The notes below the pieces were generated by a model. The model was not told where the DNA came from, searched no databases, and worked only from the letters and a program-made list of their open reading frames with translations. Positions 845 to 25,758 of a DNA stretch of 64,000 bases are shown here, piece after piece; position 1 is the first letter of the stretch; each line of letters starts with the position of its first letter. A program made the position numbers and the translations under genes. Source of the stretch: Candidatus Omnitrophota bacterium (lineage in GTDB: Bacteria > Omnitrophota > Gorgyraeia > Zapsychrales > Fredricksoniimonadaceae); assembly GCA_903908245.1 (NCBI GenBank), contig CAIVRE010000006.1, positions 85,951-149,950 on the forward strand, in the 5' to 3' direction.

Positions 845-849
845 CACAC

Positions 850-2882: not shown

Positions 2883-4032
2883 TAAAATACCTTATTTTCC
2901 CGTTTGCCATCCTGGGGACCGCGCCATGGAACGCCTTTGCAACAACACACGGATCTATCCCGGCGACAAGCCGGAGAAGGCCCGTCAACTTTGGGCCAAC
3001 AGGCATATCGGCGGCCGGAATATTGACCAAAAGAGTGTCCTTGTATGTTGTGCTATCCTTTTTGATCTCAAAAAAGAAATCCGGATGCCCCAAAAGATCG
3101 TTGACCGTCCGGATCATCATGCTTTTGACGCCCACCACGCCATTCACAAGGACAGTATCCTCCGTTCTGGATAATACCTTCACCATGATCGCACCACGCC
3201 GCCGACAAAGCTCCACCCGATCGCCCAGGCGGTAACGGATAAAAGGCATGCAGGTATTTTCCAGGTCTGTCACAAGCAAAGCCCCGACCCCTTCATCGGC
3301 CGCGGTCCCGTCATCCCTGAGGACCTCAAAAAAAAGTCCGTCAGAGAACACGGACATATACGGATCTTCCGGCCTTCGGGTGATCGCGAACCCGGAAACC
3401 TCCATCGCCCCGTAATGATCATGGATCCGGACCTTCCCGATCCGTTCGATCCGTTCCCGATACGACGGCCACAACGGCTCTCCATTGACCACGCATTTTC
3501 TGATCGAATGCCTGGCCCCAAGCCTTGAAAAAAGGTCGAACAGCTGGTTGGTATAGGCATTCACTATCGCAGGACGCAAGGCCCGGATAAGGCTCACGGC
3601 TTCATCACATTTTTGCGGAGTGCTGATACCCCCTAAAGCAATGACCCCCGAACCAGCCGCTTTATAAGCCGCCTCCATCATACGTCCGCCGCTGTTCAAC
3701 TCGTAGGAACACAAATTAAGGCACACCTCCCCCGGCCCGGCCCCTATGCTGCGGTACATCCGGGCAAGCCGGCGAAGATGCATGTTATACGCCGCCCGGG
3801 AATGCACGATCAAAAGACGGGAACCGGTCGAACCGGATGTGGATGTGATATTGAACGCGGAAGGGATAAAACCCGCAGCGGCAAAGGCTTTCAGGTCCGC
3901 ACGCGCCATCACCGGAAGCCGAAGGATATCTTCTTTCTTCCTGAGTGGCAGTAAGACCTTCCGGTAGCCACGCACGCGCACCATAAAACCCGATACAAGC
4001 GCGGATATCTTTTTCAAGGCAAGGCTACTCAT
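2857..4032 (-). CDS. Adenylate-forming enzyme of the PaaK / coenzyme F390 synthetase family (AMP-binding).
   Basis: TSGSTG is a core adenylation motif. The length of ~390 aa is typical of PaaK-like ligases. It is in an operon with rSAM genes. Confidence 0.65.
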   Translation of the reverse strand: MSSLALKKISALVSGFMVRVRGYRKVLLPLRKKEDILRLPVMARADLKAFAAAGFIPSAFNITSTSGSTGSRLLIVHSRAAYNMHLRRLARMYRSIGAGPGEVCLNLCSYELNSGGRMMEAAYKAAGSGVIALGGISTPQKCDEAVSLIRALRPAIVNAYTNQLFDLFSRLGARHSIRKCVVNGEPLWPSYRERIERIGKVRIHDHYGAMEVSGFAITRRPEDPYMSVFSDGLFFEVLRDDGTAADEGVGALLVTDLENTCMPFIRYRLGDRVELCRRRGAIMVKVLSRTEDTVLVNGVVGVKSMMIRTVNDLLGHPDFFFEIKKDSTTYKDTLLVNIPAADMPVGPKLTGLLRLVAGIDPCVVAKAFHGAVPRMANGKIRYFIDGRERAV

Positions 4033-4958
4033 TAAAAGCCTCTCCGGATCTTTATGTCCGTTTTATCAGCGAACGCGGAACTGATACCGGTCAACGCCGG
4101 AACAGCGATCCGGTGCCGCCGGGCAATTTCCAGGAGCGCCCCGGTCATAAAACACATTTCCGTCGGACGGCCGGACATAACATCCGTATAGGTCGAGCCC
4201 ATATGACGGATCACTCCGTAACGGCCAAGGCGGATGCCATCCACCGCGCGCATGGGGTCAAAAGCAAGGCGGACCCCTTCCGCCGCCGCCAAACGCTTCC
4301 CTTCCAGGATAGCCCTGCGGGCCAGCCCATACACCGCCGCATCCTCCTTAAGGATATCATACCCGCGGCCGGTAATGACAGGAAGCGGGTTCATGACGGC
4401 ATTAAAAATAAGCTTCGCCCACACCGCACGCCGCGGATCCGCAACGGCGGCAGACCTGACCCCTGCCCTGGCGAACAGCGCGGCGATCTTTCTCGCCCCG
4501 GCCCCCCCCGCGAACACCTTCCCGCGAAAAGCGATCTCAACGCGCCCTGCCCCGGCCTCACGACAGGCAATGGTCGCAACCCCGCGGGAAATATCAGCAC
4601 TCCTGAAAAGATCCGTCGCCCAGGAAAGATCGAAGATCCCGTTCTGCGGGAAAAAAACATTCTTTGCCCTGGCATAACGCGCCGTCAGCTCCGCCGCGGC
4701 ACGCACCCCCGCGACCTTGGTCGTGATAATGATAAGGTCGAACAAACGCCCGGATAATTCCCGAGGGTGATCGACCACTTCCGCTCGCGCATGAAAGGCC
4801 TTCCGGCCCTCCTTCAAAAAGATCCCCCGGCGGCGAATGATACGGCGAGTCCTCTCCCCACGGTCATACACCGTAATGGCAGCGACCGATGACAACATCG
4901 CCGCCAAAGAACAACCAAGGGCCCCGCAGCCAACGATCAGGACATTCTTCTTTATCAT
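4032..4958 (-). CDS. 2-Dehydropantoate 2-reductase family (PanE/ApbA-like) NAD(P)-dependent oxidoreductase.
   Basis: The N-terminus has a Rossmann motif, LIVGCGALG. The C-terminus has STYTDVMSGRPTEM, which resembles the ketopantoate reductase signature STxQDxxxGRxTEID. Confidence 0.65.
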   Translation of the reverse strand: MIKKNVLIVGCGALGCSLAAMLSSVAAITVYDRGERTRRIIRRRGIFLKEGRKAFHARAEVVDHPRELSGRLFDLIIITTKVAGVRAAAELTARYARAKNVFFPQNGIFDLSWATDLFRSADISRGVATIACREAGAGRVEIAFRGKVFAGGAGARKIAALFARAGVRSAAVADPRRAVWAKLIFNAVMNPLPVITGRGYDILKEDAAVYGLARRAILEGKRLAAAEGVRLAFDPMRAVDGIRLGRYGVIRHMGSTYTDVMSGRPTEMCFMTGALLEIARRHRIAVPALTGISSAFADKTDIKIRRGF

Positions 4959-5917
4959 GACACCATAACTTTCAGCTCTGACAACACTTTTAATGCCCGC
5001 GTTCTGGCCTCAGCGCTCTTTAAATATTCATCGAGCTTCTTAAGCCGGCCCTGTGATCCCTTCGGATCCCAGAATCCCCTTTGGATCAATGTGCTCATCA
5101 ATGCCAAATGAGGATTATACCCCCGGGCCTTCCTGAAAAGATACATGCACGCATGAACGATCTCGCAGGAGGTCTCCTCCGACCTGAACTCCTCGGTCCG
5201 GGAGATACCGACCTCCTTCTTCAAGACACGGAATATCTCCGCTTCAGTGACCAAAAAGGTATTCAACGGGTAACAAACATCAACGGCCACTTTTCTCTTT
5301 TTTAAACGGGTCGCATCCATTGCCGCGATGAACTGCGCGATCACCGGCGTGGGAGGAGGGCCTCCGGTTTCCCAAAGCTGCGGATGCTCCAGGTCGAATT
5401 TGCCTGTCATGACCAAAGGGATCCCGCTTGCTCCTGCATGTCTCTCGATCACCAAAGGAAGCACCCTGGAACACACATCGCACGGCAGCCCTACGGAAGC
5501 GGAAAGGAACCCCTGACGAAAAGTCTGCCGGTACATCTTCCGGAACAAGCGTGCCTCATCAAGAACGACGTGGTCCATCCCCAAACGTCCGGTGACACGT
5601 TCCACATTCTTGAACGCCAGCGGCTCCATGAACCCGTTATCAACGGTCACCCCGAGAGCGCGAAGCTTGTATCTTTTCGACACCAGCCACGCCAGGTACG
5701 CGCTGTCTTTCCCCCCGCTCAAAGCCAGGACAACATGGTATTTCATGTCGCTTCGCCTAAGGCGTGCCAACCGCGCCTCAAGTTCCCCGCGCAGCTTTTC
5801 TCTCAACACGCCGACCTGTCTGGAAGACAAACGGATCATCTGACAACCCATATCCTTCGATCCCCGGATTAAACAGAACAACTGCACTTTGACCCCAAAG
5901 ACCGTAATAACAAGCAA
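4955..5917 (-). CDS. PP-loop (N-type) ATP pyrophosphatase, adenine-nucleotide alpha-hydrolase superfamily. The true start is probably internal, e.g. M at ~5851 or MKYHVV at ~5746.
   Basis: A SGGKDS PP-loop motif follows MKYHVVLAL. There is a 4-nt overlap with the downstream gene. Confidence 0.65.
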   Translation of the reverse strand: MLVITVFGVKVQLFCLIRGSKDMGCQMIRLSSRQVGVLREKLRGELEARLARLRRSDMKYHVVLALSGGKDSAYLAWLVSKRYKLRALGVTVDNGFMEPLAFKNVERVTGRLGMDHVVLDEARLFRKMYRQTFRQGFLSASVGLPCDVCSRVLPLVIERHAGASGIPLVMTGKFDLEHPQLWETGGPPPTPVIAQFIAAMDATRLKKRKVAVDVCYPLNTFLVTEAEIFRVLKKEVGISRTEEFRSEETSCEIVHACMYLFRKARGYNPHLALMSTLIQRGFWDPKGSQGRLKKLDEYLKSAEARTRALKVLSELKVMVS

Positions 5918-6002
5918 ATATCCTAACTATTTATATTTATATAATTATATCATATAATTAAAACATACAGCGTCGTATCACGATCGGCACCAGGACCATT
6001 GA
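5918..6002. promoter_or_regulatory. AT-rich divergent intergenic region. It is the likely bidirectional promoter region between the minus-strand operon (850-5917) and the plus-strand rSAM operon (6003-15007).
   Basis: The sequence tatttatatttatataattatatcatataattaaaa sits in otherwise ~58 % GC DNA, between divergently oriented genes. Confidence 0.4.
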
Positions 6003-7268
6003 ATGACAATGAAAAACGATCCCCGTTCTACCGCCAATATATTCCTGCCGCCCGTGACATTCTCGGCGTGCATGAATCACTGGACCATGCGCCTTTACAC
6101 CGCCTATGTTTATCTGGCACTGCGCGACAATGATCTGCGCGTACAGTTTTACGACCATCTCGACGACATCCCCGGCTTCGAAAAACACCTTCGATCGCAA
6201 ATAACAAAAAGCCCCCGCAGCAGGAACATCCATGGCATCGCCATGTTCCTGGGAAATAAAAAGAACGCGTTAAGGCTCATGCAACAGATCAGGGCCAAGG
6301 ACCCCCGCGGGCTGATCGTGGCCTTTGGCCCGACCGCCTCTTTTTTCCACCGGCAGATCCTGACCCGCGGCCTGGCCGATATTGTCATTACCGCAGACCC
6401 CGAGTTTGTTTTCCCGAAGCTCGTCCGGGCCGGAACAGATATCTCCACGGTCCCTAACCTGGCCCTTCTGCAACATGAAAAGATCATGAAAACCCGGCCA
6501 AAAACCTTTACCGACCTGGACTCCCTTCCTTTCGCCGGACAATATTTCTGTGATAAAGGACTGACGCCGGTCCCGGTCGTAACAGCCCGCGGATGTCCTT
6601 TCAGCTGTTCTTTCTGTGACCGCCCGCTCCTGTGGGGCGCACAAACACGCCTGCGGAGCGTTGATAATATTTTCGCCGAGATCCATTCCCTGGTAACCCG
6701 CTACAACCTCCCGCGGCTGTTCTTCGATGACGCCAATTTTATTCTCAATAAGGACCGGACCATCCATTTATGCCAACAGCTGACGAAACTGCCGAAACCC
6801 GTTTCCTGGGGCTGCACCGCCAGGGTTGATTGCGCCGACCCGAAAACCCTGCGCCTGATGCGATACGCCGGCTGCGAAACGGTTTATTTCGGGATCGAGT
6901 CCGGCGATGAAACGATCCTGCGGAATATAGGGAAGGAATACGGGCAAAAAGAGATCCTGCAGGCGGTTAAATGGACCCGGGACGCAGGCATAAAAGTGGG
7001 GATCTTCCTGACTGTCGGGAATCCTGGCGAATCCGGCCGATCACTGGTCAAAACGAAGAAACTTTTACGCGATCTGTACCCTTTTTCCGAACTCACGATC
7101 AACCCTCTGGTGGTGCTGCCCGGGACCCCCATCTATGCCCGATTCATCAAAGAAAAAAAGATCACCGAAGAAGCCTGTTTCGACAATGACACCCTGATGT
7201 TCTTCGATACCAAGGCCCAGGCCTACATGAAAGATATTGCCCAGTTGAGAAAGTTCTTTAAACAATGA
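6003..7268 (+). CDS. B12-binding-domain radical SAM enzyme (class-B-like).
   Basis: An N-terminal Rossmann-like B12-binding region precedes TARGCPFSCSFCDR, a CxxxCxxC cluster. The architecture is shared with 11803, 16455 and 17820. Confidence 0.85.
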   Translation: MTMKNDPRSTANIFLPPVTFSACMNHWTMRLYTAYVYLALRDNDLRVQFYDHLDDIPGFEKHLRSQITKSPRSRNIHGIAMFLGNKKNALRLMQQIRAKDPRGLIVAFGPTASFFHRQILTRGLADIVITADPEFVFPKLVRAGTDISTVPNLALLQHEKIMKTRPKTFTDLDSLPFAGQYFCDKGLTPVPVVTARGCPFSCSFCDRPLLWGAQTRLRSVDNIFAEIHSLVTRYNLPRLFFDDANFILNKDRTIHLCQQLTKLPKPVSWGCTARVDCADPKTLRLMRYAGCETVYFGIESGDETILRNIGKEYGQKEILQAVKWTRDAGIKVGIFLTVGNPGESGRSLVKTKKLLRDLYPFSELTINPLVVLPGTPIYARFIKEKKITEEACFDNDTLMFFDTKAQAYMKDIAQLRKFFKQ

Positions 7269-7278
7269 AAGACAACCG

Positions 7279-8274
7279 ATGATCCTTAAAGAAAATGAAC
7301 TGTTGCTTCGGCGGCGGCTTCGCGTGGCCGGCATCCGCGACAATAAATTGTATATCGGCCCGGAAGTGGTCCACCTCCACATCACGAACCGCTGCAATCT
7401 GCGTTGCCGGCACTGCTGGTACCATTCTCCGGATAATCCCGTGCACACCCGTCCGGCCCAGGACATGCCTTTGGCGGAATTCGACGCCATATTAAAAGAC
7501 TGCGCGGACCTGAAAGTCGACGCCCTTTATATCTCCGCCGAAGGAGAGCCGACCTTACATCCGCAATTCGAACAGATGATGGATCACGCAGCGAAATTCC
7601 CGTTAGCTTTAACGGTCTTTACGAATGCCGCATTCCCCGCCAGACTTCGCCCGGCTTTATTAAAAGCCGACCGCCTGATCATAGACATTAGCGCCGCGGA
7701 TGCCAAAATGTATCACGCCATCCATGGCGCGGATCATTTCAACAAAGTCATTGCCAACATCAAGGCATTATCGCGGATGAACGGGGCCTCGGGTAAAGAC
7801 GGCCTGATGTCTGTCACTTGTATCATCAATAAACTTAACGCGTCACGGACCGGGGAAATATCAAAACTGATGAACGACATGGGCATTAATTCTGTGGATT
7901 TCAAACCCATGCAGCCTCATGCCCATAACCAGGACATCCTGGTCCCCCAAAAAGATCAGCCGGCCCATTGTTTAAATCAGCCCCCTTTATTTAAGTGGTG
8001 CTTTCAAGGCTGGTTCTATATATCGATAAGATTGGACGGGCAGATCAGTTATTGCTGTTATGTCAACGAAATGAACGCCGCGCGATTGAACAAGGGATCG
8101 CTCAAGGCCGCCTGGAGATCACTGTCCCTGATGAAGGCACGCCTTCTGGGAAAGACCGGGCAACTCGGCAGGAAGTTCAGGGAATGCCCGGGGTGCGCCT
8201 TCCGAAAACAGAATACGGCCGTTCTTGCCGAATTGGCAAGAATGAAGAAAAATAGGTCCGTGCACACTCCTTAA
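7279..8274 (+). CDS. Radical SAM enzyme with a C-terminal Cys cluster (SPASM/twitch-like). It is tandem paralog 1.
   Basis: HITNRCNLRCRHC and AEGEPTL are present. The C-terminus has C...C..W...YCC...CPGC. It is ~55-60 % identical by eye to the next ORF. Confidence 0.85.
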   Translation: MILKENELLLRRRLRVAGIRDNKLYIGPEVVHLHITNRCNLRCRHCWYHSPDNPVHTRPAQDMPLAEFDAILKDCADLKVDALYISAEGEPTLHPQFEQMMDHAAKFPLALTVFTNAAFPARLRPALLKADRLIIDISAADAKMYHAIHGADHFNKVIANIKALSRMNGASGKDGLMSVTCIINKLNASRTGEISKLMNDMGINSVDFKPMQPHAHNQDILVPQKDQPAHCLNQPPLFKWCFQGWFYISIRLDGQISYCCYVNEMNAARLNKGSLKAAWRSLSLMKARLLGKTGQLGRKFRECPGCAFRKQNTAVLAELARMKKNRSVHTP

Positions 8275-8289
8275 AATGAAAGACCGTCG

Positions 8290-9285
8290 ATGATCCTGGA
8301 AAAAAATGAACAAGAACGCCGGTGGCGCCTTCGGGTGGCAGGGGCCCGTGATGAAAAACTGTATATCGGCCCGGAGATCGTTCATTTGCATATTACGAAC
8401 CGCTGCAATTTACGCTGCCGATACTGCTGGCACCATTCCCCCGGGAATCCGGAGCTCGCTCATCCGGCCCAGGACCTGCCTTTCAGGAAGTTCTGTGCCA
8501 TATTAAAAGACTGCCGGACATTGAAAGTCAATAACCTTTATATCTCCGGCGAAGGGGAACCGACCCTGCATCCCCGGTTTGCGCAAATGATGGACCTGGC
8601 CGAACAATATCCTTTGGCCGTTACGGTCTTTAGCAATGCCACCTTTCCGTCCAGCCTGCTCCCGGCCCTGTTAAAAGCGGACCATCTGGTCGTTGATCTT
8701 AGTGCGCCTGATGCCGCCGATTATCAGATCATCCACGGAGCGGATCATTTCAACCGCGTCGTCAATAACATCAAGGCCCTGTCGCAAATGCGCAAAGACC
8801 TCGGGAAACATCTCTCCATAACAGGCCGCTGTGTCATGAACCGGATCAATCAGCCGCGCCTTCATGAAATATCAGGCCTGATGAGGTCCATCGGAGTTGA
8901 CTCGATAGAACTCGTCCCGATGCAGCCAACCCCGTTCAACCGCGATATTGCGATCAAGCCGAAAGATCCATTACCCCATGGCCCGAAAAAAGGCCCTGAA
9001 TGCAACCGTTGTTTTAATGGATGGTTCTATCTTTCAGCAAGGCTCAACGGCCAGATGAGTTACTGCTGCCGGGTCCCTCAGATCAACACCGGGCATCTAT
9101 ACCGAAGCTCATTGAAAACAGCCTGGGGATCAAAAAAATTCATGGCCCTGCGCGTTCTGGGAAAGACCAGCCAGATCAATAAGAAATTCAAGGAATGCGC
9201 GGAATGTCATTACAAACGACAGAATATAGCGGTACTTCTCGAACTCGCAAGAATGAAACGAATAACCCCGCGAAAAAGCCCGTGA
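8290..9285 (+). CDS. Radical SAM enzyme with a C-terminal Cys cluster (SPASM/twitch-like). It is tandem paralog 2.
   Basis: HITNRCNLRCRYC and GEGEPTL are present. The C-terminus has C..C..W...YCC...CAEC. Confidence 0.85.
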   Translation: MILEKNEQERRWRLRVAGARDEKLYIGPEIVHLHITNRCNLRCRYCWHHSPGNPELAHPAQDLPFRKFCAILKDCRTLKVNNLYISGEGEPTLHPRFAQMMDLAEQYPLAVTVFSNATFPSSLLPALLKADHLVVDLSAPDAADYQIIHGADHFNRVVNNIKALSQMRKDLGKHLSITGRCVMNRINQPRLHEISGLMRSIGVDSIELVPMQPTPFNRDIAIKPKDPLPHGPKKGPECNRCFNGWFYLSARLNGQMSYCCRVPQINTGHLYRSSLKTAWGSKKFMALRVLGKTSQINKKFKECAECHYKRQNIAVLLELARMKRITPRKSP

Positions 9286-9334
9286 CCAACAGATATGTAA
9301 ACATCCCTGTTTATGTTATTATGATCGATAAAAT

Positions 9335-10234
9335 ATGCCGTTAACTGACGCCTCAAACATCCTCTGGTCCTTACTCTTGCTGATCACCGGTGCCATCACC
9401 TGTTTCTTCGACATAACCCGCCAAAAGATCCTCAACACCCATCTTGTTTTCCTGGGGATGCTGGGGGCCATCGTCCTTCTCTTCCATTCGCTCTTGTGGC
9501 ATCACGACCCGGCCACGCACATGCTCAACGGGGCCATTGCGCTGGTCGTCGGAGCCGTCCTCTATATCAGCCATACCTGGCGCGGAGGCGATGCCAAACT
9601 TTTCACGCTTTACGCCTTTCTTATGCCGCTGCCCGCCAAAAGCAACCTGTTCTCATTACCGCCGGTCGCTTTATTCATCAACACCTTCCTCGCCGGGATG
9701 TTCTTCCTGGCCCCGTTCCTCATCAAAGACATGATCCATAACCGCGCCGCCGTTATCGCCCAGGCCAGGTCCGCCGAAGAACAACAGGCCTTTCTCCGGG
9801 GGATCTCCGCCGCGTTCTTCGCGTCATGGATACTGTCCCCTGTCATGCAAACTGTCGTTAAAGCCTACCACACACCGCTCTCGTTCTTTATCGCCTACGT
9901 CGTTTTTGCCATAACCCGGAACGCCGCCATCAAGACCCGGACGGATTATATCCAGCACAATATCCAGAAACACCTGCTCATGATCGTGGCCCTGCTGGTC
10001 ACCGGCACGCTCCTTAGGATATTCCTGACCCCCTGGGCCCTGAACCCTTTTTACCTGGCCCAATATGCCGTGATCTTCCTGGCCTTTTCCGTCTCTTTTG
10101 CCGTCATCTTCCATACGATCCAGCATTTGGAGAACCACAAGGAACGGATCGCTTTCGCGCCTTTCCTGTTCATCGGGTGCGTTCTGAGCTATACGCCGTT
10201 CCTGTCACTGTTCATGCGGGCGCTCCATCATTAA
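9335..10234 (+). CDS. Polytopic membrane protein with motifs of the A24 prepilin-peptidase family (intramembrane aspartyl protease). It is a candidate peptide-processing protease.
   Basis: It has 8 or more hydrophobic segments. It has WRGGDAKLF, which matches the A24 second catalytic motif G-G-D-(V/A)-K-L. An upstream Asp in FFDITRQ lies ~50 residues before it. Confidence 0.45.
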   Translation: MPLTDASNILWSLLLLITGAITCFFDITRQKILNTHLVFLGMLGAIVLLFHSLLWHHDPATHMLNGAIALVVGAVLYISHTWRGGDAKLFTLYAFLMPLPAKSNLFSLPPVALFINTFLAGMFFLAPFLIKDMIHNRAAVIAQARSAEEQQAFLRGISAAFFASWILSPVMQTVVKAYHTPLSFFIAYVVFAITRNAAIKTRTDYIQHNIQKHLLMIVALLVTGTLLRIFLTPWALNPFYLAQYAVIFLAFSVSFAVIFHTIQHLENHKERIAFAPFLFIGCVLSYTPFLSLFMRALHH

Positions 10235-10353
10235 AAGATGATGCCGCATATGTCCGGGCATGCCCGGTACCAGTAAAATTTATTCTGGAATTAGCTAAAA
10301 GTTCTGTGTAAAGTGGTCCATCGGAAACAATATCTCCTTGAGGCTGTTAAAGC

Positions 10354-11784
10354 ATGCTGACGAGTTCCCTGGAATTGAACTTCCTGAGATTCTTGACCCG
10401 CAATATCCCCATGAGCCTGGAGGATGTTCTTTTCACCCCCTTATATGAAGACCTCCCGCGCGACCATTTCCACCGGTTCCTGACCGGATATTTTGCCGAT
10501 CAGGCCAATGATCACATCGTTCACCGCGGATTATATCTGCACATCCCTTACTGCGTGAATAAATGCGCTTATTGCCATTGCCAGACCTGGCCCGGCCCGG
10601 ATCACCCGTTAAGCCTGAACGATTACGTTAAACGATTAAAGAATGAAATAGCCTGGATCGCCCCCGTCACCGGCGGCCGGGGCTTCAGCCACCTTGCATT
10701 CGGCGGAGGGACTCCATCTCTGCTGAGTGAAAAGCAGATCCAGGGATTGTTCGCTGCGGCAGAACCGCATTTGAACAAGAACACAAGACCGCCCAGGATC
10801 TCTTTTGAAGGCAATCCCGGGTCGCTGACAACACCCAAACTGGAACTGTTGCGCAAACTGGGGGTTCAACGGCTAAGCATAGGGGTACAAACACTCAATG
10901 ACCGCACGCTTAACCTGGTCGGCAGACACCAGTCCTCTGAGGACGTTACCCGATGCATCAACGATGTTAAGGCCCTGGGGTTCCCATTCCTGAACATCGA
11001 CCTGCTGGCCGGCCTGCCTGGACAAACGTCGCAGGAGTTCCTCGACGACCTTGCCCGCATCGTTTCCTTCCGCCCGGAGATCATCCACTTGAACGGGCTC
11101 AGTGACATCGCCGGTACAGCGTTAAACGCCAACAGGCCTTTTAATACGGCCTCGTTCTTCCAACGCCGCCAAAAGATGCTCCTTCAGGGAAAAACGTTCC
11201 TGTCCGAACATGGCTACAAGCAGCAAGGATCAAGCGCTTTTGCGATCGCGCAGGATGGAGAAGATTATGACCGGCTGTTCTATACCGATCGCCCGGGCGC
11301 GGTCATAGGCCTCGGCGCTTTTGCCAGAAGCTCCCTGCCGGGCGGAGGCTTGTTCGAAAGCCTTCTTTCCGGGAAATCCGTCAACGCATTCGCGTATCGC
11401 GGGCAAAAGATCTCCCGAAAACAATCCATGGCAAAAATGATCGTGATCAATATTATTAACGGTATGGATATCGATCGGCTCGGCACCCTCTTTAACGAAG
11501 ATGCGCGGGCTGTATTCGCCGAAGAGATCAAGGCCCTTACACAACGCGGGATGGTCGCGGAAAAAGCCGGCTGCTGGATCTATCCGGGAGAACACAGTTT
11601 CAAGGGGCTTTTCGATCTTCACTCACACCTGAAGATCCTTTTCGGCAAGGAAGTCCTGGAACTTTTATGGCGGAAATACCGCAAGGCCTATTCCGCTTCC
11701 GAAAACTATCTGGACGCCCCCCATCTGGCATGGGCCATACAAAACCAATGGTTCACCAACAGCTATTACGGCCTTGGCTGGTAA
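10354..11784 (+). CDS. HemN-like (coproporphyrinogen III oxidase family, class-C-like) radical SAM enzyme.
   Basis: YLHIPYCVNKCAYCHC is present. The N-terminal extension NFLRFLTRNIP... is shared with 13562 and 15028. GGGTPS is present. Confidence 0.85.
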   Translation: MLTSSLELNFLRFLTRNIPMSLEDVLFTPLYEDLPRDHFHRFLTGYFADQANDHIVHRGLYLHIPYCVNKCAYCHCQTWPGPDHPLSLNDYVKRLKNEIAWIAPVTGGRGFSHLAFGGGTPSLLSEKQIQGLFAAAEPHLNKNTRPPRISFEGNPGSLTTPKLELLRKLGVQRLSIGVQTLNDRTLNLVGRHQSSEDVTRCINDVKALGFPFLNIDLLAGLPGQTSQEFLDDLARIVSFRPEIIHLNGLSDIAGTALNANRPFNTASFFQRRQKMLLQGKTFLSEHGYKQQGSSAFAIAQDGEDYDRLFYTDRPGAVIGLGAFARSSLPGGGLFESLLSGKSVNAFAYRGQKISRKQSMAKMIVINIINGMDIDRLGTLFNEDARAVFAEEIKALTQRGMVAEKAGCWIYPGEHSFKGLFDLHSHLKILFGKEVLELLWRKYRKAYSASENYLDAPHLAWAIQNQWFTNSYYGLGW

Positions 11785-11802
11785 TGGCCCCTTAACCTTT
11801 AT

Positions 11803-13122
11803 ATGAAAAACCCGAAGATCATCATATTTTCGCCTCCCTACCATCATCTCGGCACCAGGGAGTTATACGGTCAAAGCGGACGGGAAGACTGGTTCCCCCT
11901 CGGCGCTTTTTCCATCACCAATGCGCTGCGGCTGGCCGGCAATGAACACACCTTTCTTTATTACCAGGAAGACCATTCTCCCCGGACTCTGGAGCGCCTG
12001 ATCAAAAGGATCAAGCCGGACATTGTCGGCATATCCTGCTTTTCGTTGACCCGGTTCGCGTGCCTTGACCTTGCGAAACGTGTTAAAAAGATCGACCGGG
12101 ATACCCTCACCATCCTCGGGGGGACCCATCCTTCGTTCCTGGATAAACAGATCATGACAAACTACCCGTTCATTGATATGGTCCTGCGGGGTTACGGAGA
12201 AACGGCCTTTCCGGATATTGCCGATGCCTTCTCCCGCCGGAAAACTTTTGACGGGATCCCGGGATTATCCTGGAGGGATAAAGGGCGCTGGATCAGGAAT
12301 CGCGACGGACAAATCCACGATGAACTATCCCTGCCGCTTGCCAAAGACATGCGCGATGCGATCCTCGGAGAGTTCCCGTCCTGGATATCCCGGGACATGA
12401 TCTCCCATACTATCCCGGTTGAGACCGCCAGGGGATGCCCGTACCATTGTTTCTTCTGCAGTAAAATAGAGCAGAAAGAAAACAGGGTCATTGACCGCGA
12501 TCCCGGTCATGTCCTCAAATATATCAAAGGGCTGTTCAAGCTTTTCGGGCCGCGTCCGATATACTTCTGCGCCCCCAATTTTACGCTCAACAAGAAAAAG
12601 GCACTGGCCCTCTGCCGGGCCTTAAAACGTTCAAAACTTCAGGTCCAATGGACATGCGGGACGCGTATCGACCTTATCGACAAAGAACTCCTCCTCGAAA
12701 TGAAAACTGCCGGCTGCCAGCGGATCTATTACGGCGTGGACTCCTTATGTCAAAGGCTGCTCCATTCCATCCACAGGGACTACACGCCGGAAAAAGCCGT
12801 CAGGGACCTGAACCTTACCGTTGCCTGCGGCCTGGCATGCGAAGCCAATTTACTGATCGGGTTCCCGGGTGAAGACCGCCGGTCCCTGTCGGAGTCGCTG
12901 TTGTTCCTGCGCAAGATCGACCCGAAGGTCTCCGTTGTTGTCCGGCCGCTGAAGATCATGCCCGGTTCGCAGCTTTACCATAAAGCGATCGAAGAAGGCT
13001 TTGATGAAACATACTGGCTCAAAGACCATGGCACCGATTTTCCGGATTATACGGGCAGCTTGCCTGCCAAAGAACTTGTTAAATACTGCCGGACCTTTAA
13101 CGAAATCAGGAGAAGAACATGA
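11803..13122 (+). CDS. B12-binding-domain radical SAM enzyme.
   Basis: ARGCPYHCFFC is present. An N-terminal B12-binding-like domain is present. Confidence 0.85.
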   Translation: MKNPKIIIFSPPYHHLGTRELYGQSGREDWFPLGAFSITNALRLAGNEHTFLYYQEDHSPRTLERLIKRIKPDIVGISCFSLTRFACLDLAKRVKKIDRDTLTILGGTHPSFLDKQIMTNYPFIDMVLRGYGETAFPDIADAFSRRKTFDGIPGLSWRDKGRWIRNRDGQIHDELSLPLAKDMRDAILGEFPSWISRDMISHTIPVETARGCPYHCFFCSKIEQKENRVIDRDPGHVLKYIKGLFKLFGPRPIYFCAPNFTLNKKKALALCRALKRSKLQVQWTCGTRIDLIDKELLLEMKTAGCQRIYYGVDSLCQRLLHSIHRDYTPEKAVRDLNLTVACGLACEANLLIGFPGEDRRSLSESLLFLRKIDPKVSVVVRPLKIMPGSQLYHKAIEEGFDETYWLKDHGTDFPDYTGSLPAKELVKYCRTFNEIRRRT

Positions 13123-13592
13123 CCCAGGCCGCTTCCAGGATCTGCCTTGCTGCCCAAAGGCTGGCACAACACGCCGGGCAATGCCTTTTCGTGACCCTCG
13201 GCCACGGCGGGTCCCCCAGGGCGAGATATATGGGCGCTTTAAAGGTCGACAACGGAATGAAGGTATTCCTGGTCTGCCGGCCCGGATCGAACAAAGTGCG
13301 GGAGATCGCCCGGGACCCCCGCGCGCAGGTCGTCCTTGCGGATGAGCCCCGTCGCCGGGTGGTCACGCTCAACGGGAACGCTTATCTGGAACGCTCAAGG
13401 ACCGTCCGCAAGAAACTTTTTACCGCTACGGCCCCTTTGAAATTGTATCCCGCCTTTAATAACGATTTCGGGGTGATCCGTTTCATCCCTGAAACACTGG
13501 AATATCTGGACCTGGATATCAGGCTTGAACCCGTCATCATTGACCTGACAGGGAGGCGCCATTGCTCGCCCAAGACACTAAAAACTTCCTGA
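13119..13592 (+). CDS. Pyridoxamine 5'-phosphate oxidase-like FMN-binding split-barrel protein.
   Basis: Its size of 157 aa and its sequence pattern are typical of PNPOx-like small flavoproteins. There is an ATGA start/stop overlap with the upstream gene. Confidence 0.55.
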   Translation: MTQAASRICLAAQRLAQHAGQCLFVTLGHGGSPRARYMGALKVDNGMKVFLVCRPGSNKVREIARDPRAQVVLADEPRRRVVTLNGNAYLERSRTVRKKLFTATAPLKLYPAFNNDFGVIRFIPETLEYLDLDIRLEPVIIDLTGRRHCSPKTLKTS

Positions 13593-15007
13593 GGTTCCTG
13601 ACCCTCACCGTCCCCGGAGGGATCGAAGATACTCTGGCCGTCCCTCTGTTCCATCCTTTAAGCCCGAAAGAGATCGGAACACATCTTAAACGCTTCGCGC
13701 AAAAGCCGTTCCCCGGCGGCCAACCGCCCAAAACGCACCTCAATATCCATATCCCGTTCTGTTCCTCCCTGTGCTCTTATTGCCATTGTTCCCGCGTCAA
13801 ACTCAAGAACAGGGAACAATTGCGTGATCATGTCGGGCTCATTATCGACCAGATCCGGACATTTGCGCCCTTGTTAAAAGGCCATGAATTCACCTCCCTG
13901 TCCCTGCTGGGAGGAACAGTATCCCTCCTGGAAGATCCCGCGATCGACCAACTCCTGACCGAAGCCCTCGGCCGATTCACATTCCGGAAGAAAACCGATA
14001 TCCATTTCGAAGGGCATCCGGTGTCCCTGACCTCCGCCAAACTGCGCCTTTTACGGCGCCGGGGCGTCAACCGCATCAACCTCGGAGTCCAGACCCTGGA
14101 TGAAAAAGTACTGAAGAACATCAAACGGAACCAGACCAGAAAAGACGTGGAAAAGTGTATCAAGGCTGTCAGGCGATCAGGCTTTCCCTGCCTGAATGTT
14201 GACGTCATCGCCGGACTGCCTGGCCAGACAGTGACCAGCTTCCTGAAGGACATCCAGGACCTGATCCGCTGGAAGGTCGATCTGATCCATATCAACCCCT
14301 TCAGCGATATTGTCGGATCAGCCTGTTACCGGGAGAACCCCGTCGATCTGGCCATGCTTTTCAACCGCCGGCAGGCCATGATCCTCAAAGCCGTTTCACT
14401 CTTGGGATCCGCCGGCTATTCCAACCGGTCGCTTGCCGGATACCAAAGGGCCGGCCTGAAATATAAAGCCGGGAAACAAACGCTTCCCCCGGACGATCAT
14501 GCCGGCGCTGTGCTGAGCCTCGGGATATTCGCCCGCAGCAGCCTTCCGGGAAGCCTAGTCTTTGAAACCCTCCCCTGCGACGACACCTTCAGTACCGCCC
14601 GTTACGCCGGCCACCCGGTCGATCAACGCTACGCCATGGCCAACTATGCCACGCTGCATCTGCTTGACGGAATGGACATCGCCGCCTTCCGGCGCCTTTT
14701 TACCGCCGGTCCCGCTGATATCTTTCAAAAAGAACTTCTGGCCCTTGCCGAAGAAGGCCTGCTGTCATCCGACGGAAAGACATGGCGCTACTGCGGCCCC
14801 TGGACCATCCCCGGACTTTTCAATTATTACTCCCTCACCAAGATATTGTACGGGAAGAAGATGCTTGATGCATTGCGGCGGACCTATGCGGCAAAATATG
14901 ATCCGGCGGCCGATCATGGCTCGCCGAAAAACCTTTTGAGGATATTCCAGGACCTCTGGTACACGCGGACCTATTACCGGTTAGGCTACAAATCCTGCTG
15001 GCTATAA
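13562..15007 (+). CDS. HemN-like radical SAM enzyme.
   Basis: NIHIPFCSSLCSYCHC is present. The N-terminal motif NFLRFLTLTVP is shared with the other HemN-like paralogs. Confidence 0.85.
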   Translation: MLAQDTKNFLRFLTLTVPGGIEDTLAVPLFHPLSPKEIGTHLKRFAQKPFPGGQPPKTHLNIHIPFCSSLCSYCHCSRVKLKNREQLRDHVGLIIDQIRTFAPLLKGHEFTSLSLLGGTVSLLEDPAIDQLLTEALGRFTFRKKTDIHFEGHPVSLTSAKLRLLRRRGVNRINLGVQTLDEKVLKNIKRNQTRKDVEKCIKAVRRSGFPCLNVDVIAGLPGQTVTSFLKDIQDLIRWKVDLIHINPFSDIVGSACYRENPVDLAMLFNRRQAMILKAVSLLGSAGYSNRSLAGYQRAGLKYKAGKQTLPPDDHAGAVLSLGIFARSSLPGSLVFETLPCDDTFSTARYAGHPVDQRYAMANYATLHLLDGMDIAAFRRLFTAGPADIFQKELLALAEEGLLSSDGKTWRYCGPWTIPGLFNYYSLTKILYGKKMLDALRRTYAAKYDPAADHGSPKNLLRIFQDLWYTRTYYRLGYKSCWL

Positions 15008-15027
15008 AGACCGCGTCGGAAAACCTT

Positions 15028-16458
15028 TCATACCCCCAGGTCATATACCGCTTGCACGAACCAGCCGTTATCCATGATCTTTAACATGAACCGCTCCTGA
15101 GAATAATCAACCGACGAATGATACTCCCGGCTGAAATTGGCCTGCAACTTTTCCAACAGGGCATCATCGTACAGGATCTTGATCCACGCAAAAAGATCGA
15201 ATAATGCCCGGAACGACCTTGTGCCCGGATAAACAAGCCGCCCGTCCTGCCAGGCCACCAGGCCCAGATGCTCCAAACGCTTCAACCCCGCTCCAAAAAC
15301 GCCCTCCAGGCTTTCCCCGAAGATCCTTTGAAAATCTTTCCTTTGGATCCCTGATAAAATATTTAAAATAATAAAATTAGCCATTACGGCATGTTTCGGA
15401 TAAGCATAACCAAAATATTCATTATCCGTCATGTCCTTTCCCGACCTTGGCAGGCACTGCATCACGGCCTGCCCCGGAAAGGTACTGATCGCATACGCCC
15501 CGATCCCCAGCGTAGCCCCGACAGATCGTTCATAAAGCACAGACTGCTCCTTTTCTCCTCCGGAGACCATTTGAAAAGCCTCATGCCCCCGCCTCAAATA
15601 CCCTCCGGAAAGGAGCATCTCCCTGCCTTTTCTGGTCATGGTATGCCGCCCCTTGAAAAAAGCGGCAATATCCCCTTTCTTCATTTGATAATAGGGCGAC
15701 GGCTGTATATTCCAGAAAGGATGAAGATGGATCACTTCCGGCTTACGCGCGATCAGGAACCGCAGGTCCGCCAGAAAGCTTGCCTCTGTCTGCAACGGAA
15801 GGCCTGCCATCACATCAATATTCAGGAAATCAAAACTCAAACTCCGGATATTATCGATACAACGCTCGACCTCTTCCCTGCTCTGCAAGCGATCTACTGC
15901 GTTAAGAACTTTCTTGTTCAGGGTCTGCACGCCAAGGCTTATCCGGGAAACTCCCCCTTCTTTCAAAGCCTTCAATTTATCAAGCGTTAATGTCCGCGGG
16001 CTGCCTTCAAACATAAAATAAGCCTTTTCCCGTACAGCAAACGACCGGCGGATCGACCCGAGGAGCCCCGTGATCTGAGCCGCGCTCAATAATGAAGGGG
16101 TCCCTCCGCCAAAATTACATATATCAACAGGCACGCCCCTGGCATGAGGCGCATAAGCATCTATCATCCCCAACAAATACTGATAATACGCCTGCATCTC
16201 CGCTTTTTGAGCAACGGCCTTTCGCTCGCACCAGCAGTAAAGGCAACGCTTCAGACAAAAAGGAATATGAAAATAAAGAGAAAAAGCCGGAGAATAAGAA
16301 CGATACCCCCGCTGAAAGAAACGGTCGATATGCTTCCCCATGACAGTCCCGGGAACCGGATTAAAAAGGGCTCCGCCGAACATGTCCACCTGGCCCAGAG
16401 GCAGCTTAAGTGTCAGGAATCTCAGGAAATTAATATCCCGGATCTTCATGGCCTTCAT
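15028..16458 (-). CDS. HemN-like radical SAM enzyme. The start was chosen at MKAMKIRD, which gives an ATGA overlap with the upstream stop; the ORF track extends to 16515.
   Basis: YFHIPFCLKRCLYCWC and GGGTPS are present. The N-terminal motif INFLRFLTLKLP is present. Confidence 0.8.
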   Translation of the reverse strand: MKAMKIRDINFLRFLTLKLPLGQVDMFGGALFNPVPGTVMGKHIDRFFQRGYRSYSPAFSLYFHIPFCLKRCLYCWCERKAVAQKAEMQAYYQYLLGMIDAYAPHARGVPVDICNFGGGTPSLLSAAQITGLLGSIRRSFAVREKAYFMFEGSPRTLTLDKLKALKEGGVSRISLGVQTLNKKVLNAVDRLQSREEVERCIDNIRSLSFDFLNIDVMAGLPLQTEASFLADLRFLIARKPEVIHLHPFWNIQPSPYYQMKKGDIAAFFKGRHTMTRKGREMLLSGGYLRRGHEAFQMVSGGEKEQSVLYERSVGATLGIGAYAISTFPGQAVMQCLPRSGKDMTDNEYFGYAYPKHAVMANFIILNILSGIQRKDFQRIFGESLEGVFGAGLKRLEHLGLVAWQDGRLVYPGTRSFRALFDLFAWIKILYDDALLEKLQANFSREYHSSVDYSQERFMLKIMDNGWFVQAVYDLGV

Positions 16459-17813: not shown

Positions 17814-17819
17814 AACCCG

Positions 17820-20330: not shown

Positions 20331-20340
20331 GGTCAACACT

Positions 20341-23601: not shown

Positions 23602-23605
23602 CGGG

Positions 23606-23974: not shown

Positions 23975-24017
23975 TATCTTAATTTACCATATTTTCGACT
24001 TTCTTGCGAATAATTAA

Positions 24018-24081: not shown

Positions 24082-24085
24082 CTAA

Positions 24086-25744: not shown

Positions 25745-25758
25745 AATTTCCCCCTTTT

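Follow-up and report, generated by a model that had tools for sequence, protein, structure and literature searches.

To our knowledge, the only substrates of prepilin peptidases are the pilins of type-4 filaments and their pilin-like proteins. The proteases known to remove the leaders of radical-SAM peptides are serine, cysteine or metallo-proteases. Every type-4 filament has four core parts, which are the pilin, the peptidase, the ATPase and the platform (PMC10191384). Peptidases of family A24 (MEROPS; PF01478) cleave class III signal peptides behind a Gly or Ala at -1 and carry a pair of catalytic Asp residues, of which the second lies in a GxGD-like motif. Those that mature Tad (type IVc) pili, namely TadV, CpaA and FppA, lack a methylase domain and are short proteins of about 140-170 aa with about five helices that are encoded in a tad locus or serve one. 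Flp prepilins of 50-80 aa are cut by a methylase-less peptidase at G/XXXXEY, where the slash marks the cleaved bond here and below (PMC4322843). The archaeal class III signal peptidases EppA, FlaK and PibD belong to the same family, and EppA, which is likewise long and spans the membrane 9-10 times, is dedicated to particular pilin-like substrates (PMC4343526).

The canonical HXS antiphage system consists of four genes (HxsA-D; TIGR03976-03979) and has been reported almost only from Pseudomonadota; canonical HxsA is trimmed at its N-terminus by an unidentified protease, and its site of action is extracytoplasmic (PMC13128918). Polytopic membrane proteases are also found in the clusters of radical-SAM peptides, for example the M50 proteases EpeP and TglG, for which a coupling of RiPP leader removal to export has been proposed (PMC10885120). 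Prepilin, A24 and aspartyl enzymes are not mentioned in that review of RiPP leader proteases, and among the papers listed in our literature search we found none that links a prepilin peptidase with RiPP or radical-SAM peptide pathways.

Here we analyzed a 64-kb stretch of DNA (hereafter the window), in which ORF 9335-10234 lies among radical-SAM genes (Table 1). Judging from sequence comparisons, we consider it on balance probable that this ORF is an active long-form A24 GxGD protease of an expanded HXS-type cluster and that it cuts an 84-aa peptide encoded in the same cluster. Like EpeP and TglG, it is a polytopic membrane protease in a radical-SAM peptide cluster, but it is an aspartyl GxGD rather than a metallo enzyme.

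Table 1. Coordinates of the features discussed in the text; positions are those of the window.
Feature	Coordinates	Strand	Remarks
Long-form membrane protease of family A24 (GxGD aspartyl, prepilin-peptidase-like)	9335..10234	+	299 aa, about 9 predicted helices
D26 codon, candidate first catalytic Asp	9410..9412	+	motif FFDITRQKILN
GGDAKL motif, G84-L89	9584..9601	+	D86 is the second catalytic Asp
C-terminal motif RIAFAPFLFIGC	10145..10180	+	R271-C282
HxsA3-like small peptide	20341..20595	-	84 aa; Lys-rich N-terminus, acidic motif, helix, His-rich tail ending HTSY
Earlier-proposed site K19-G20/F21-V-M-D-E25	20521..20541	-	
Conserved candidate class-III-like site D24-E-D-G27/F28-V-S-K-E32	20500..20526	-	
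Hydrophobic helix ILKVGLSTVAGMAALGAAF	20440..20496	-	I34-F52, predicted membrane segment
His-rich C-terminal tail	20344..20421	-	H59-Y84 (HTNHANS...C..HTNTASHTSY)
Glycosyltransferase-28-like protein	19134..20303	-	conserved beside the peptide
HxsB-type radical SAM/SPASM maturase	20567..21988	-	final 29 nt shared with the start of the peptide gene
Cys-rich protein	21998..22732	-	244 aa, N-terminal signal/anchor sequence
HxsD-like small protein	22729..23172	-	
Remainder of the cluster	5..19133		twelve further radical-SAM genes; basis: Pfam and NCBIfam
Radical-SAM gene (partial)	5..823		
Radical-SAM gene	850..1890		
Radical-SAM gene	1854..2882		
Radical-SAM gene	6003..7268		
Radical-SAM gene	7279..8274		
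Radical-SAM gene	8290..9285		
Radical-SAM gene	10354..11784		
Radical-SAM gene	11803..13122		
Radical-SAM gene	13562..15007		
Radical-SAM gene	15028..16515		
Radical-SAM gene	16455..17813		
Radical-SAM gene	17820..19133		
PaaK-like gene	2857..4032		
PanE-like gene	4032..4958		
PP-loop gene	4955..5917		
PNPOx-like gene	13119..13592		

Family membership and catalytic residues of the protease

A preliminary description of this DNA had reported a 299-aa ORF with a GGDAKL motif and read it as an A24-like prepilin peptidase with a first Asp about 50 residues upstream of that motif. The ORF exists, encodes a membrane protein of about nine helices and contains WRGGDAKLF, with GGDAKL at G84-L89. Pfam matched positions 2-103 of the 104-position PF01478 Peptidase_A24 profile to residues 14-124. 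The window protein alone scored 23.3 bits (E = 9.4e-5), slightly below the gathering score of 26.5, and PF01478 was matched by all 24 aligned members of the protease family, with a best E of 3.1e-9. D26 and D86 are invariant in the 24 sequences, as are I32, N34 and G85 to L89 (G-D-A-K-L). The first Asp thus proposed was found, but it lies 60 residues before D86. In relatives at 24-28% identity the second-Asp motif reads W[RG][AG]GD[AG]KLF. Near the C-terminus, R271, F274, L278, G281 and C282 are invariant in the same alignment and A275 and P276 nearly so; the motif is retained as [IV]PFAP in distant relatives.

The enzyme was compared with a 156-aa CpaA/TadV-type ORF from an unannotated Sphingobium tad locus, which was reached by a tblastn search of the A24 domain against plasmids that gave two weak matches only. 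The hhalign comparison with this ORF reached 94.4% probability (E = 8.6e-8) and brought both Asp motifs into register, D26 pairing with the Asp of SDVSTRRIPN and GGDAKL with GGDAKF. The motifs D-x-S/T-x-x-R/K-I-x-N and GGDAK[LF] are common to the two proteins, and the A24 domain matches the N-terminal 125 residues of the protease end to end. A methyltransferase domain is absent from the protease, as from TadV/CpaA; the A24 domain begins at residue 14 and no other domain was found. In contrast to the short tad-encoded subtype, the protease is nearly twice as long (299 versus about 156 aa), has about nine helices, about four of which are extra and inserted ahead of the last conserved helix, and is encoded in a radical-SAM cluster. 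In our own reading, its C-terminal motif corresponds to the P-F/Y-G/A-P of the last A24 helix, as seen in the CpaA-type ORF (GIPYGVAIAVG); hhalign left the FAP motif unaligned.

The AF2 model of the protease was all-helical with a pLDDT of 81.7. In the predicted topology, D26 closes helix 1 at its cytoplasmic end, ahead of the loop TRQK, and D86 comes after the loop SHTWR, which itself follows helix 3, in line with the positive-inside rule. Both Asp residues are thereby predicted at cytoplasmic helix ends beside Arg/Lys-bearing loops, which agrees with the description of prepilin peptidases in PMC10191384. As a long form with about nine helices, the protease is also similar to EppA, but no sequence or fold match to FlaK was detectable: a Foldseek search of the PDB returned no match, FlaK (PDB 3S0X) included, and when the profile of the family alignment was searched against PDB sequences, only chance matches to chlorophyll-binding proteins came up. 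Membership in CPBP or another membrane-protease family was rejected because no such family matched. These comparisons support ORF 9335-10234 as an A24 peptidase.

Gene neighborhoods of the protease and its relatives

Homologues of the protease are few, 68 among 5.8 billion proteins. Relatives 24-37% identical to it, nearly all of them from Omnitrophota MAGs, belong to clusters of the same kind. In every locus with sufficient flank, the same gene set surrounds the homologue, comprising HxsD, HxsB, an HxsA3-like peptide and GT-like, radical-SAM, PaaK-like and PanE-like genes. In related loci, the A24-like gene is also bordered by homologues of several genes from 5..19133, and the peptide is within reach of the protease homologue in 14 distinct loci. 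In the window, the peptide gene is located 10.1 kb from the protease gene, at the opposite end of the cluster. A metagenome scan with a narrow peptide alignment found loci with distant peptides of the KDESG type, four of which (L039, L040, L050 and L051) carry an A24-like gene whose product is 24-28% identical and retains the two Asp residues; in two others with distant peptides (L043 and L053) no such gene was found within the 10 kb examined.

By its gene order, the protease appears as a fixed, dedicated part of the radical-SAM cluster and not as a stray gene. We pair enzyme and peptide because this neighborhood is conserved at 24-37% identity and the peptides carry a class-III-like motif, and processing of the cluster's peptide by the A24-like enzyme is indirectly supported in this way. 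The protease would represent a subfamily of about 295 aa that is devoid of a methylase domain and dedicated to an expanded His-Xaa-Ser-type radical-SAM cluster.

Likeness of the cluster to the HXS system differs from gene to gene. The HxsB-type maturase scored 372.1 bits against NCBIfam TIGR03978, above the cutoff of 370. The HxsD-like protein scored 27.8 bits against TIGR03976 (cutoff 50) and is 65-70% identical to proteins of two related loci (L001 and L002) that bear the Pfam HxsD domain. The best candidate for HxsC in the window, the radical-SAM gene at 1854-2882, reached 46.5 bits against a cutoff of 267.9, and PADLOC reported generic radical-SAM (viperin) similarity only. The NCBIfam small repeat proteins HxsA3 and HxsA4 were the sole families matched by the peptide and its relatives, all below the cutoffs: the window peptide scored 25 bits against HxsA3 (cutoff 65), and ten relatives scored 20-37 bits against the HxsA3/HxsA4 cutoffs of 55-65. 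The peptidoglycan-binding domain is absent. In contrast to the canonical four-gene system, the window adds about 12 radical-SAM genes as well as GT-like, PaaK-like, PanE-like and A24-like protease genes, and the window-type system is found almost entirely in Omnitrophota MAGs.

The 244-aa Cys-rich protein matched no family in Pfam or NCBIfam. It is homologous to L002:13059-13793 (BLASTP E = 2e-7), and its homologues of 245-268 aa adjoin the peptide in related loci. The GT-like protein matched Pfam Glyco_tran_28_C weakly (E = 5e-4) and is 38-46% identical to peptide-neighbor proteins in at least 12 loci. Homology begins near 20303, and the listed GTG start at 20432, which overlaps the peptide gene, is probably too far upstream.

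Candidate cleavage sites in the 84-aa peptide

The small peptide with VKSLKGFVMDE noted in the preliminary description is real, being 84 aa long with Gly20, Phe21 and Glu25 in place, and its gene is preceded by a ribosome-binding site, GGAAGGAAAG. We collected 245 homologues, which are represented by 95 sequences at 50% identity. The helix I34-F52 is the most hydrophobic 19-mer in the peptide (mean Kyte-Doolittle hydropathy, KD, of 1.65) and is nearly invariant across the family; the AF2 model, of low confidence (pLDDT 51.5), places a rough helix at residues 31-53. In the tail, H62, N64, H75, N77 and H81 are invariant in our alignment A3 and C72 and the terminal S-Y nearly so, and 108 of 120 homologous peptides end in H[ST]SY. 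His-x-Ser/Thr/Asn triplets are present in the window peptide although the HxsA-type models fall below cutoff. The His-rich tail is likely the target of the radical-SAM enzymes.

The cleavage site was previously placed at G20/F21, with KG/FVMDE taken as a full class-III consensus and the A24-like enzyme suggested to remove a 20-aa leader. Gly at -1, Phe at +1, Glu at +5 and also Lys at -2 are all present in the window peptide. GFxxxE is rare, with 15 occurrences in the 127,996 six-frame residues of the window and hence about 0.01 expected in 84 aa; for [KR]GFxxxE about 0.003 is expected per 84 aa, and G20 can be aligned with the conserved KSLG glycine of the homologues, given an indel. However, [KR]GFxxxE occurs in none of the 120 homologous peptides, leaving the window peptide as the only one to have it; the homologues have E, D, A or Q after the KSLG glycine, and an Asp falls at +5 only with a shifted register. 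The 20 residues after G20 include six charged ones and have a mean KD of 0.37, compared with 1.79 for a real Flp pilin, so the hydrophobic stretch of a class III signal is missing and the site is not bordered by a membrane segment. The A24 enzymes known so far cut where a hydrophobic helix meets the cytoplasm (PMC10191384). We regard cleavage at G20/F21 as very unlikely.

Seven residues downstream, GFxxxE is present at DEDG/FVSKE in 114 of the 120 homologues. Alignment A3 shows no variation at D24, E25, G27, V29, S30 and E32; the motif F-x-K-D-E-D/S-G/x-V-S-K-E is nearly invariant and is followed by the hydrophobic helix, and so is the longer KSLGxLMKDEDG/FVSKETILKVGLSTVAALG among the 120 peptides. 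Across 84 representatives at 50% identity, F or L at -7, D at -4 and E at -3 are kept, and G at -1 is found in 83. The +5 position is acidic (E or D) in 64 of the 84 and not acidic in 20; it is His in the distant L032 peptide.

The DEDG/FVSKE motif resembles the Flp prepilin leader FLKDESG/ATAIEY, and an annotated Flp pilin reads MTKLFTRFLKDESG/ATAIEYGLIAAL. By hhalign, our peptide profile A5 matched this annotated Flp pilin with 78% probability (E = 1.8e-5), G aligning to G and E5 to E5, and the profile of the Omnitrophota-type peptides (A3) matched Flp with 17% probability only. The peptide is comparable in size to Flp pilins (type IVb/IVc, PF04964), with 84 aa in the precursor and 57 aa after the proposed cut (54-67 aa in its relatives). 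It has the same leader end, KDE(D/S)G, the same Glu at +5 and a single hydrophobic helix with a short tail; in common with the TadV/CpaA system, the substrate proposed here carries an Flp-like leader, F-x-K-D-E-x-G/ with Glu at +5. In contrast to Flp pilins, none of five peptides searched with E up to 10 matched Pfam Flp_Fap (PF04964), and Tyr at +6 of the Flp motif is never present, Thr or Asn being found instead. The sequence after G27 is not directly hydrophobic: Lys occupies +4 and +9, the core begins at about +7 to +10 after a 6-residue insertion relative to Flp in hhalign, and mean KD over +1 to +20 is 0.99 versus 1.79 for Flp. The peptide tail also differs in its conserved His-x-Ser/Thr/Asn and Cys motifs, which are apparently for radical-SAM modification. 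Archaeal class III sites have a basic residue at -2, whereas the peptides have Asp or Ser.

When the window and five related loci were scanned for G/xxxx[EDQ] followed by a hydrophobic stretch, no further plausible gene came to light. Most likely, the protease would cut at G27/F28, with E32 at +5, and remove a leader of 27 aa. Alternatively, the strong conservation of the leader could reflect its recognition by HxsB or HxsD.

An SPP/presenilin-style cut inside or beyond the hydrophobic helix would release the modified tail outside and leave the N-terminal 55 residues as leader and anchor. The substrates of SPP-type GxGD proteases are expected to lie N-in and C-out, as the peptide would, and many conserved Gly, Ser and Thr residues occur in its helix (VGLSTVAALG). 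Compared with the TadV type, the enzyme is longer by about 170 residues and about four helices, and a RiPP leader normally stops right before the modified core. We know, however, of no A24-family member that cleaves within a membrane span; the two Asp residues are predicted to face the cytoplasm, and the Flp-like motif with its invariant Gly is also on the cytoplasmic side. The helix is conserved as much as the leader, which suggests that it is retained in the product. Such a cut is unlikely in our assessment.

The hydrophobic segment might also be an ordinary Sec-type signal that signal peptidase I cleaves after A56, at NASA/G, in which case the A24-like protein would have another role. An AxA-like N-A-S-A/G does follow the helix in the window peptide, but the homologues read ALTDISSGQ or similar with no AxA site, and the conserved charged region of 30 residues before the helix is unlike Sec signals. 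A non-canonical processing route has also been reported for canonical HxsA (PMC13128918). Sec-type cleavage at NASA/G was rejected because the site is not conserved, and we hold this explanation to be highly improbable.

The comparisons above show to which family the protease belongs, its catalytic residues, the conserved company of the genes and the conservation of the motif. From these we infer the substrate, the cleavage site (G27/F28), the succession of steps and what becomes of the product, as follows. The peptide would be synthesized with a Lys-rich cytoplasmic leader ending in F/L-x-K/M-D-E-D-G, followed by F-V-S-K-E and one hydrophobic helix. HxsB and the other radical-SAM enzymes would modify its His/Thr/Asn/Cys-rich tail in the cytoplasm, and the peptide would then be inserted into the membrane with its N-terminus in and its C-terminus out. 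The protease would cut at G27/F28, with Glu32 at +5, and take off the 27-aa leader as TadV does on Flp prepilins (G/XXXXEY). The resulting 57-aa product, of Flp-pilin size, would remain membrane-anchored with the modified tail outside or, where PilB/PilC-like genes adjoin the cluster, might be built into a type-IV-like filament.

PilB/PilC-like genes beside related clusters

The preliminary description stated that no pilin or secretion genes are nearby. This holds for the 64-kb window, within which none was found, PilB/PilC-like genes included. In seven related loci, however, HxsD has genes for T2SSE (two copies), T2SSF and MshEN as neighbors. Candidate genes for the pilin-like peptide, the peptidase, the ATPase and the platform are located together in these seven loci; T2SSE, T2SSF and MshEN genes were not seen beside HxsD in L007, L011 and L026. 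Neither the window nor the related loci yielded tad genes, and the ATPase and platform genes of the latter are PilB/PilC-like (MshEN, two-domain T2SSF) and not TadA/TadB/TadC-like as in the Tad system. In L016, a 610-aa protein with a pilin-like N-terminus is encoded between HxsD and T2SSE.

The A24-like enzyme might instead serve other pilins, either those of the adjoining PilB/PilC-like machinery or some encoded elsewhere, its position in the cluster being inherited gene order and the peptide leader being removed by another protease or never. The PilB/PilC/MshEN genes of the seven loci and the 610-aa protein speak for this explanation, and shared ancestry could preserve gene order because nearly all loci are from one phylum. 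However, the A24-like gene lies inside the cluster in the window despite the lack of PilB/PilC in 64 kb, and likewise in L007 and L011. It sits between radical-SAM genes and away from the ATPase and platform genes, its link with the cluster holds down to 24-28% identity, and no other class-III-like gene was seen in the window and five related loci. Service to other pilins is, in our view, quite unlikely.

Given the PilB/PilC-like neighbors of the cluster in seven loci, the peptide may be a radical-SAM-modified pilin. The earlier idea that an A24 enzyme is used here in an unusual way may then be only half right: the substrate would be unusual, while the enzyme may do an ordinary job, since the peptide looks like a short Flp-type prepilin and PilB/PilC-like genes adjoin the cluster in relatives. 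We raise tentatively, as a doubtful though real possibility, that HxsA3-like peptides are subunits of a new class of type-4 filament with a radical-SAM-rebuilt tail, an A24 cut and a PilB/PilC-like motor. As many as a dozen radical-SAM enzymes would rebuild the exposed tail while the peptide is still cytoplasmic, perhaps with glycosylation. Membrane insertion, removal of the DEDG/F leader by the long-form A24 enzyme and polymerization by the adjoining PilB/PilC-like motor would complete the assembly, a sequence of events that, taken jointly, we advance with similar reserve. If true, the filament would display a dense array of modified His-rich motifs and would be the first pilin with a surface built by radical-SAM chemistry; its roles could be, for example, metal binding, electron transfer or blocking of phage entry.

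A dedicated A24 enzyme together with a peptide that has a Flp-like leader and a radical-SAM-type tail would form a bridge between two fields. G27/F28 is a concrete predicted cleavage site for an uncharacterized peptide family of at least 95 clusters at 50% identity. The processing and export of HXS-type effectors were left open by the 2026 HXS study (PMC13128918). Our results bear on this question, as they suggest a pilin-like nature for some of the small His-Xaa-Ser repeat proteins.

A long-form A24 protease with an intact Asp dyad

The preliminary description had assigned the protease to the A24 family, and profile comparisons bore this out. Residues 14-124 align with positions 2-103/104 of PF01478 (Peptidase_A24; E 9.4e-5) at 23.3 bits, just below the gathering score of 26.5, while NCBIfam gave no useful match. 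A sequence search of 5.8 billion proteins retrieved only 68 relatives, each of ~290-300 aa and ~35% identical across the full length, most of which are labeled CpaA or prepilin peptidase in their sources. All 24 relatives that we aligned match PF01478 (best E 3.1e-9) and share D26, I32, N34, W82, G85-D86-A87-K88-L89 and the C-terminal motif R-x-x-F-A-P-x-L-x-x-G-C without exception. We also aligned the family directly to a 156-aa CpaA/TadV-type ORF located between TadC-like and TadE-like genes in a Sphingobium tad locus (hhalign probability 94.4%, E 8.6e-8). Both Asp motifs fell in register: D26 was paired with the SDVSTRRIPN Asp, and GGDAKL with GGDAKF.

In the AF2 model (pLDDT 81.7), the protease is helical throughout with ~nine membrane helices. 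As D26 lies at the end of helix 1 ahead of the TRQK loop and D86 follows the SHTWR loop, both residues are predicted to be on the cytoplasmic side, where the catalytic Asp pair of prepilin peptidases has been described (PMC10191384). A methyltransferase domain is absent from the protease. It may work like TadV, but it is ~170 residues longer than TadV-type enzymes, and its size and locus are not those of the TadV subtype. Among archaeal enzymes, a long form is known in EppA, which has 9-10 segments (PMC4343526). Neither Foldseek with the protease nor a sequence profile search with its family found a match in PDB (0 each). The protease is an A24-family member with an intact catalytic dyad and belongs to a distinct long-form subfamily.

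The protease in a radical-SAM cluster

The peptide reported in the preliminary description is real, as is the protease ORF, but the two genes are 10.1 kb apart and the conserved site lies elsewhere in the peptide. Between and around them is a very large radical-SAM cluster with thirteen radical-SAM genes (among them five B12-binding-like, three HemN-like and at least four SPASM-type genes) at 5-21988, together with PaaK-like, PanE-like, PP-loop, PNPOx-like and GT28-like genes. The thirteen genes surround, within 22 kb, one 84-aa peptide with a ~26-residue tail; related Omnitrophota loci have fewer. The HxsB gene adjoins the peptide gene and scores 372.1 bits against the NCBI curated cutoff of 370, and HxsD matches under its curated cutoff. 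Compared with the HXS system, the cluster has HxsB but misses the HxsC and HxsA cutoffs. Homology of the GT-like ORF to its relatives begins only near 20303, so its translation probably starts past the peptide stop codon. Just past the left edge of the window, the source scaffold (L033:1-500) carries a DegT/DnrJ/EryC1-type aminotransferase gene, a gene type that also forms the cluster end in the related loci L004 and L005; therefore, the cluster continues beyond the window.

Features of the window and of related loci (L handles)
Feature	Location	Strand	Remark
A24-family protease ORF, 299 aa	9335..10234	+	carries WRGGDAKLF
GT-like ORF	19134-20432	-	listed GTG start overlaps peptide gene by 92 nt
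HxsA3-like peptide, 84 aa	20595..20341	-	quoted in the preliminary description
Tandem GFxxxE heptads	20500-20541	-	G20-F-V-M-D-E-D and G27-F-V-S-K-E-T; second alone in homologues
Cys-rich protein, 244 aa	21998-22732	-	between HxsD and HxsB, whereas its gene follows the peptide in Omnitrophota loci
HxsD-side genes	23227-29518	-	stand-alone response-regulator receiver, 122-aa ORF, hybrid-cluster protein (hydroxylamine reductase), ferredoxin-like protein, Rrf2 regulator, Cache-domain histidine kinase; in the place of the PilB/PilC-like module of related loci
Cys-rich protein	L002:13059-13796	-	23% identity to window protein, E 2e-7
PilB/PilC-like module	L001:9696-16405; L002:16252-20888; L004:16060-20894		adjoins HxsD, Omnitrophota loci
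Paralogous peptide genes	L001:3379-3666, 9251-9520; L050:7726-8142, 8838-9131, 9962-10270; L044:301-594, 543-1010		
610-aa protein	L016:8860-10692	+	between HxsD and T2SSE gene
HxsB-like and HxsD-like genes	L032:13075-14442 and 14698-14976		both distant
Cys/Gly-rich peptide, 102 aa	L032:12664-12978	-	FMLDEDG|RIDKH, then hydrophobic stretch

The context sample comprised three protease relatives and 27 loci from species-representative genomes, which are all Omnitrophota MAGs except for one distant, archaeal-labelled contig; some of the 27 are labelled Planctomycetales where the assembly is a third-party one. The same neighbours were found across the sample wherever the flanking sequence was long enough: a radical-SAM gene, a GT-like gene, a 245-268-aa Cys-rich secreted protein, a small peptide, HxsB and HxsD on one flank, and more radical-SAM genes, a PanE-like gene, a PaaK-like gene and another radical-SAM gene on the other. 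The peptide gene was present in the retrieved sequence of 14 distinct loci. All conserved flanking genes have homologues in the window, including the 244-aa protein (E 2e-7). Proteins of this ~245-aa type, conserved near the peptide, have a signal/anchor sequence and PLP at the C-terminal end; a search for a family match found none. In the reverse approach, we scanned metagenome contigs with distant, KDESG-type peptides of this superfamily as the starting point. HxsD-HxsB-peptide was universal in these contigs, and A24-like genes with both Asp motifs (24-28% identity) were found in L039, L040, L050 and L051 but not in the retrieved parts of L043 and L053. Because the neighbours recur and A24-like genes reappear when starting from distant peptides, there is strong evidence that the association of protease and cluster is a functional link rather than an accident of placement. 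The protease subfamily is dedicated to this cluster type.

The L032 contig, labelled Methanosarcinales, contains a partial A24-like match; its peptide retains the Gly but has His at +5.

The peptide and its candidate cleavage site

The peptide (MALKKKRLLKKDDVVKSLKGFVMDEDGFVSKETILKVGLSTVAGMAALGAAFNASAGDHTNHANSLQTTAGCFDHTNTASHTSY) is preceded by the ribosome-binding site GGAAGGAAAG, and its gene shares 29 nt with the preceding gene. It matches HxsA3 only, with a score of 25 bits (cutoff 65), and ten relatives match HxsA3 or HxsA4 at 20-37 bits. As these scores fall below the cutoffs, membership in HxsA3/HxsA4 by the curated rules was rejected, and the family is only distantly related to the small His-Xaa-Ser repeat proteins. 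Close homologues numbered 245 in a profile search, and 95 cluster representatives at 50% identity came out of an exhaustive search. Loci with two or three peptide genes encode the same leaders and helices with different His-rich tails.

The N-terminal half is nearly invariant in 120 close homologues: KSLG-x-LMKDEDG-FVSKETILKVGLSTVAALG. In the window, KSLGELMK is replaced by KSLKGFVM, which results in two tandem GFxxxE motifs. The preliminary description had placed cleavage at the first, G20|F21, which is very probably seven residues off: [KR]GFxxxE occurs in none of the 120 homologues, whereas D-E-D-G27|F28-V-S-K-E32 is conserved in 114. The 20 residues following G20 contain six charges and those following G27 three, and the hydrophobic core I34-F52 is located downstream of G27. 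Among 84 representatives, the consensus is F-[MLVI]-K-D-E-[DS]-G | x-[VIM]-[ST]-[KR]-[ED]-x-[IV]-L-K-[IV]-G, with Gly at -1 in 83 and an acidic residue at +5 in 64. Within the cluster, the peptide gene is the sole pilin-like one, and it carries a conserved Flp-like motif whose Gly is near-invariant.

Flp prepilins are 50-80 aa long and are processed at G/XXXXEY by a methylase-less peptidase (PMC4322843). The annotated Flp pilin WP_262291344.1 reads MTKLFTRFLKDESG|ATAIEYGLIAALISVG; a distant member of the peptide family reads KSFMKDESG|AMTKENVLKIGMGTMAAL. The KDESG-type profile aligned with the Flp pilin (hhalign probability 78%, E 1.8e-5), pairing the leader, the Gly and Glu+5, but a gap of 6 residues was needed to reach the hydrophobic helix. 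The probability was only 17% for the Omnitrophota-type profile, and the Pfam Flp model matched none of the peptides. Given these results and the gap, the similarity to Flp is one of motif and architecture. Membership in the Flp family was rejected. The peptide would work like a Flp prepilin, but it neither matches the profile nor turns hydrophobic immediately after the site. Set against Flp, the family has Lys at both +4 and +9, replaces the Tyr at +6 by Thr or Asn, and begins its hydrophobic core later.

Possible filament assembly and the proposed maturation

All type-4 filaments have four core proteins, namely pilin, peptidase, ATPase and platform (PMC10191384). The statement in the preliminary description that no secretion genes are nearby holds within the window but not for seven distinct related loci (L001, L002, L004, L008, L012, L013 and L016), which carry T2SSE, T2SSF and MshEN genes beside HxsD. 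This module encodes a coiled-coil membrane protein, a two-domain T2SSF (PilC-like) platform, small MshEN proteins and two MshEN-T2SSE (PilB-like) ATPases, and is on the HxsD strand where examined, often after a gap of 70-260 nt. In L001, a second peptide gene copy comes straight after the module, and a scan of the window and five related loci for G|xxxx[EDQ] with hydrophobic sequence behind it turned up no other credible gene. The peptide might be a type-4 filament subunit polymerised by the products of the adjoining PilB/PilC-like genes. We regard this as unlikely, and as secondary to the main claim, considering that PilB/PilC-like genes are absent from the 64-kb window, that L007, L011 and L026 have no such module beside HxsD, and that the loci are all from one phylum. 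The 610-aa protein of L016 has a pilin-like N-terminus, MKKILAQSMTELVIVLVAAALALFAIG, and could be a second prepilin-peptidase substrate in that genome.

Removal of the leader by the A24-like protease is plausible and better supported than before. The peptide would be the substrate of the protease, and cleavage at G27|F28 would yield a product of 57 aa. The His/Thr/Asn/Cys tail would be modified by radical-SAM enzymes ahead of membrane insertion, because radical-SAM enzymes are cytoplasmic and canonical HXS maturation is reported to take place in the cytoplasm before export (PMC13128918). In the cluster, a protease family and a signal type that are both already known are joined to radical-SAM peptide maturation, a combination for which we found no description. 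Prepilin, A24 and aspartyl enzymes go unmentioned in a review of the proteases that remove RiPP leaders (PMC10885120), and no paper listed in a full-text literature search with RiPP and radical-SAM terms used "prepilin peptidase". N-terminal processing of canonical HxsA requires HxsB, HxsC and HxsD, and the protease behind it is unidentified (PMC13128918). Since the canonical four-gene HXS system has no A24 gene, the window cluster may represent one solution to this processing step.
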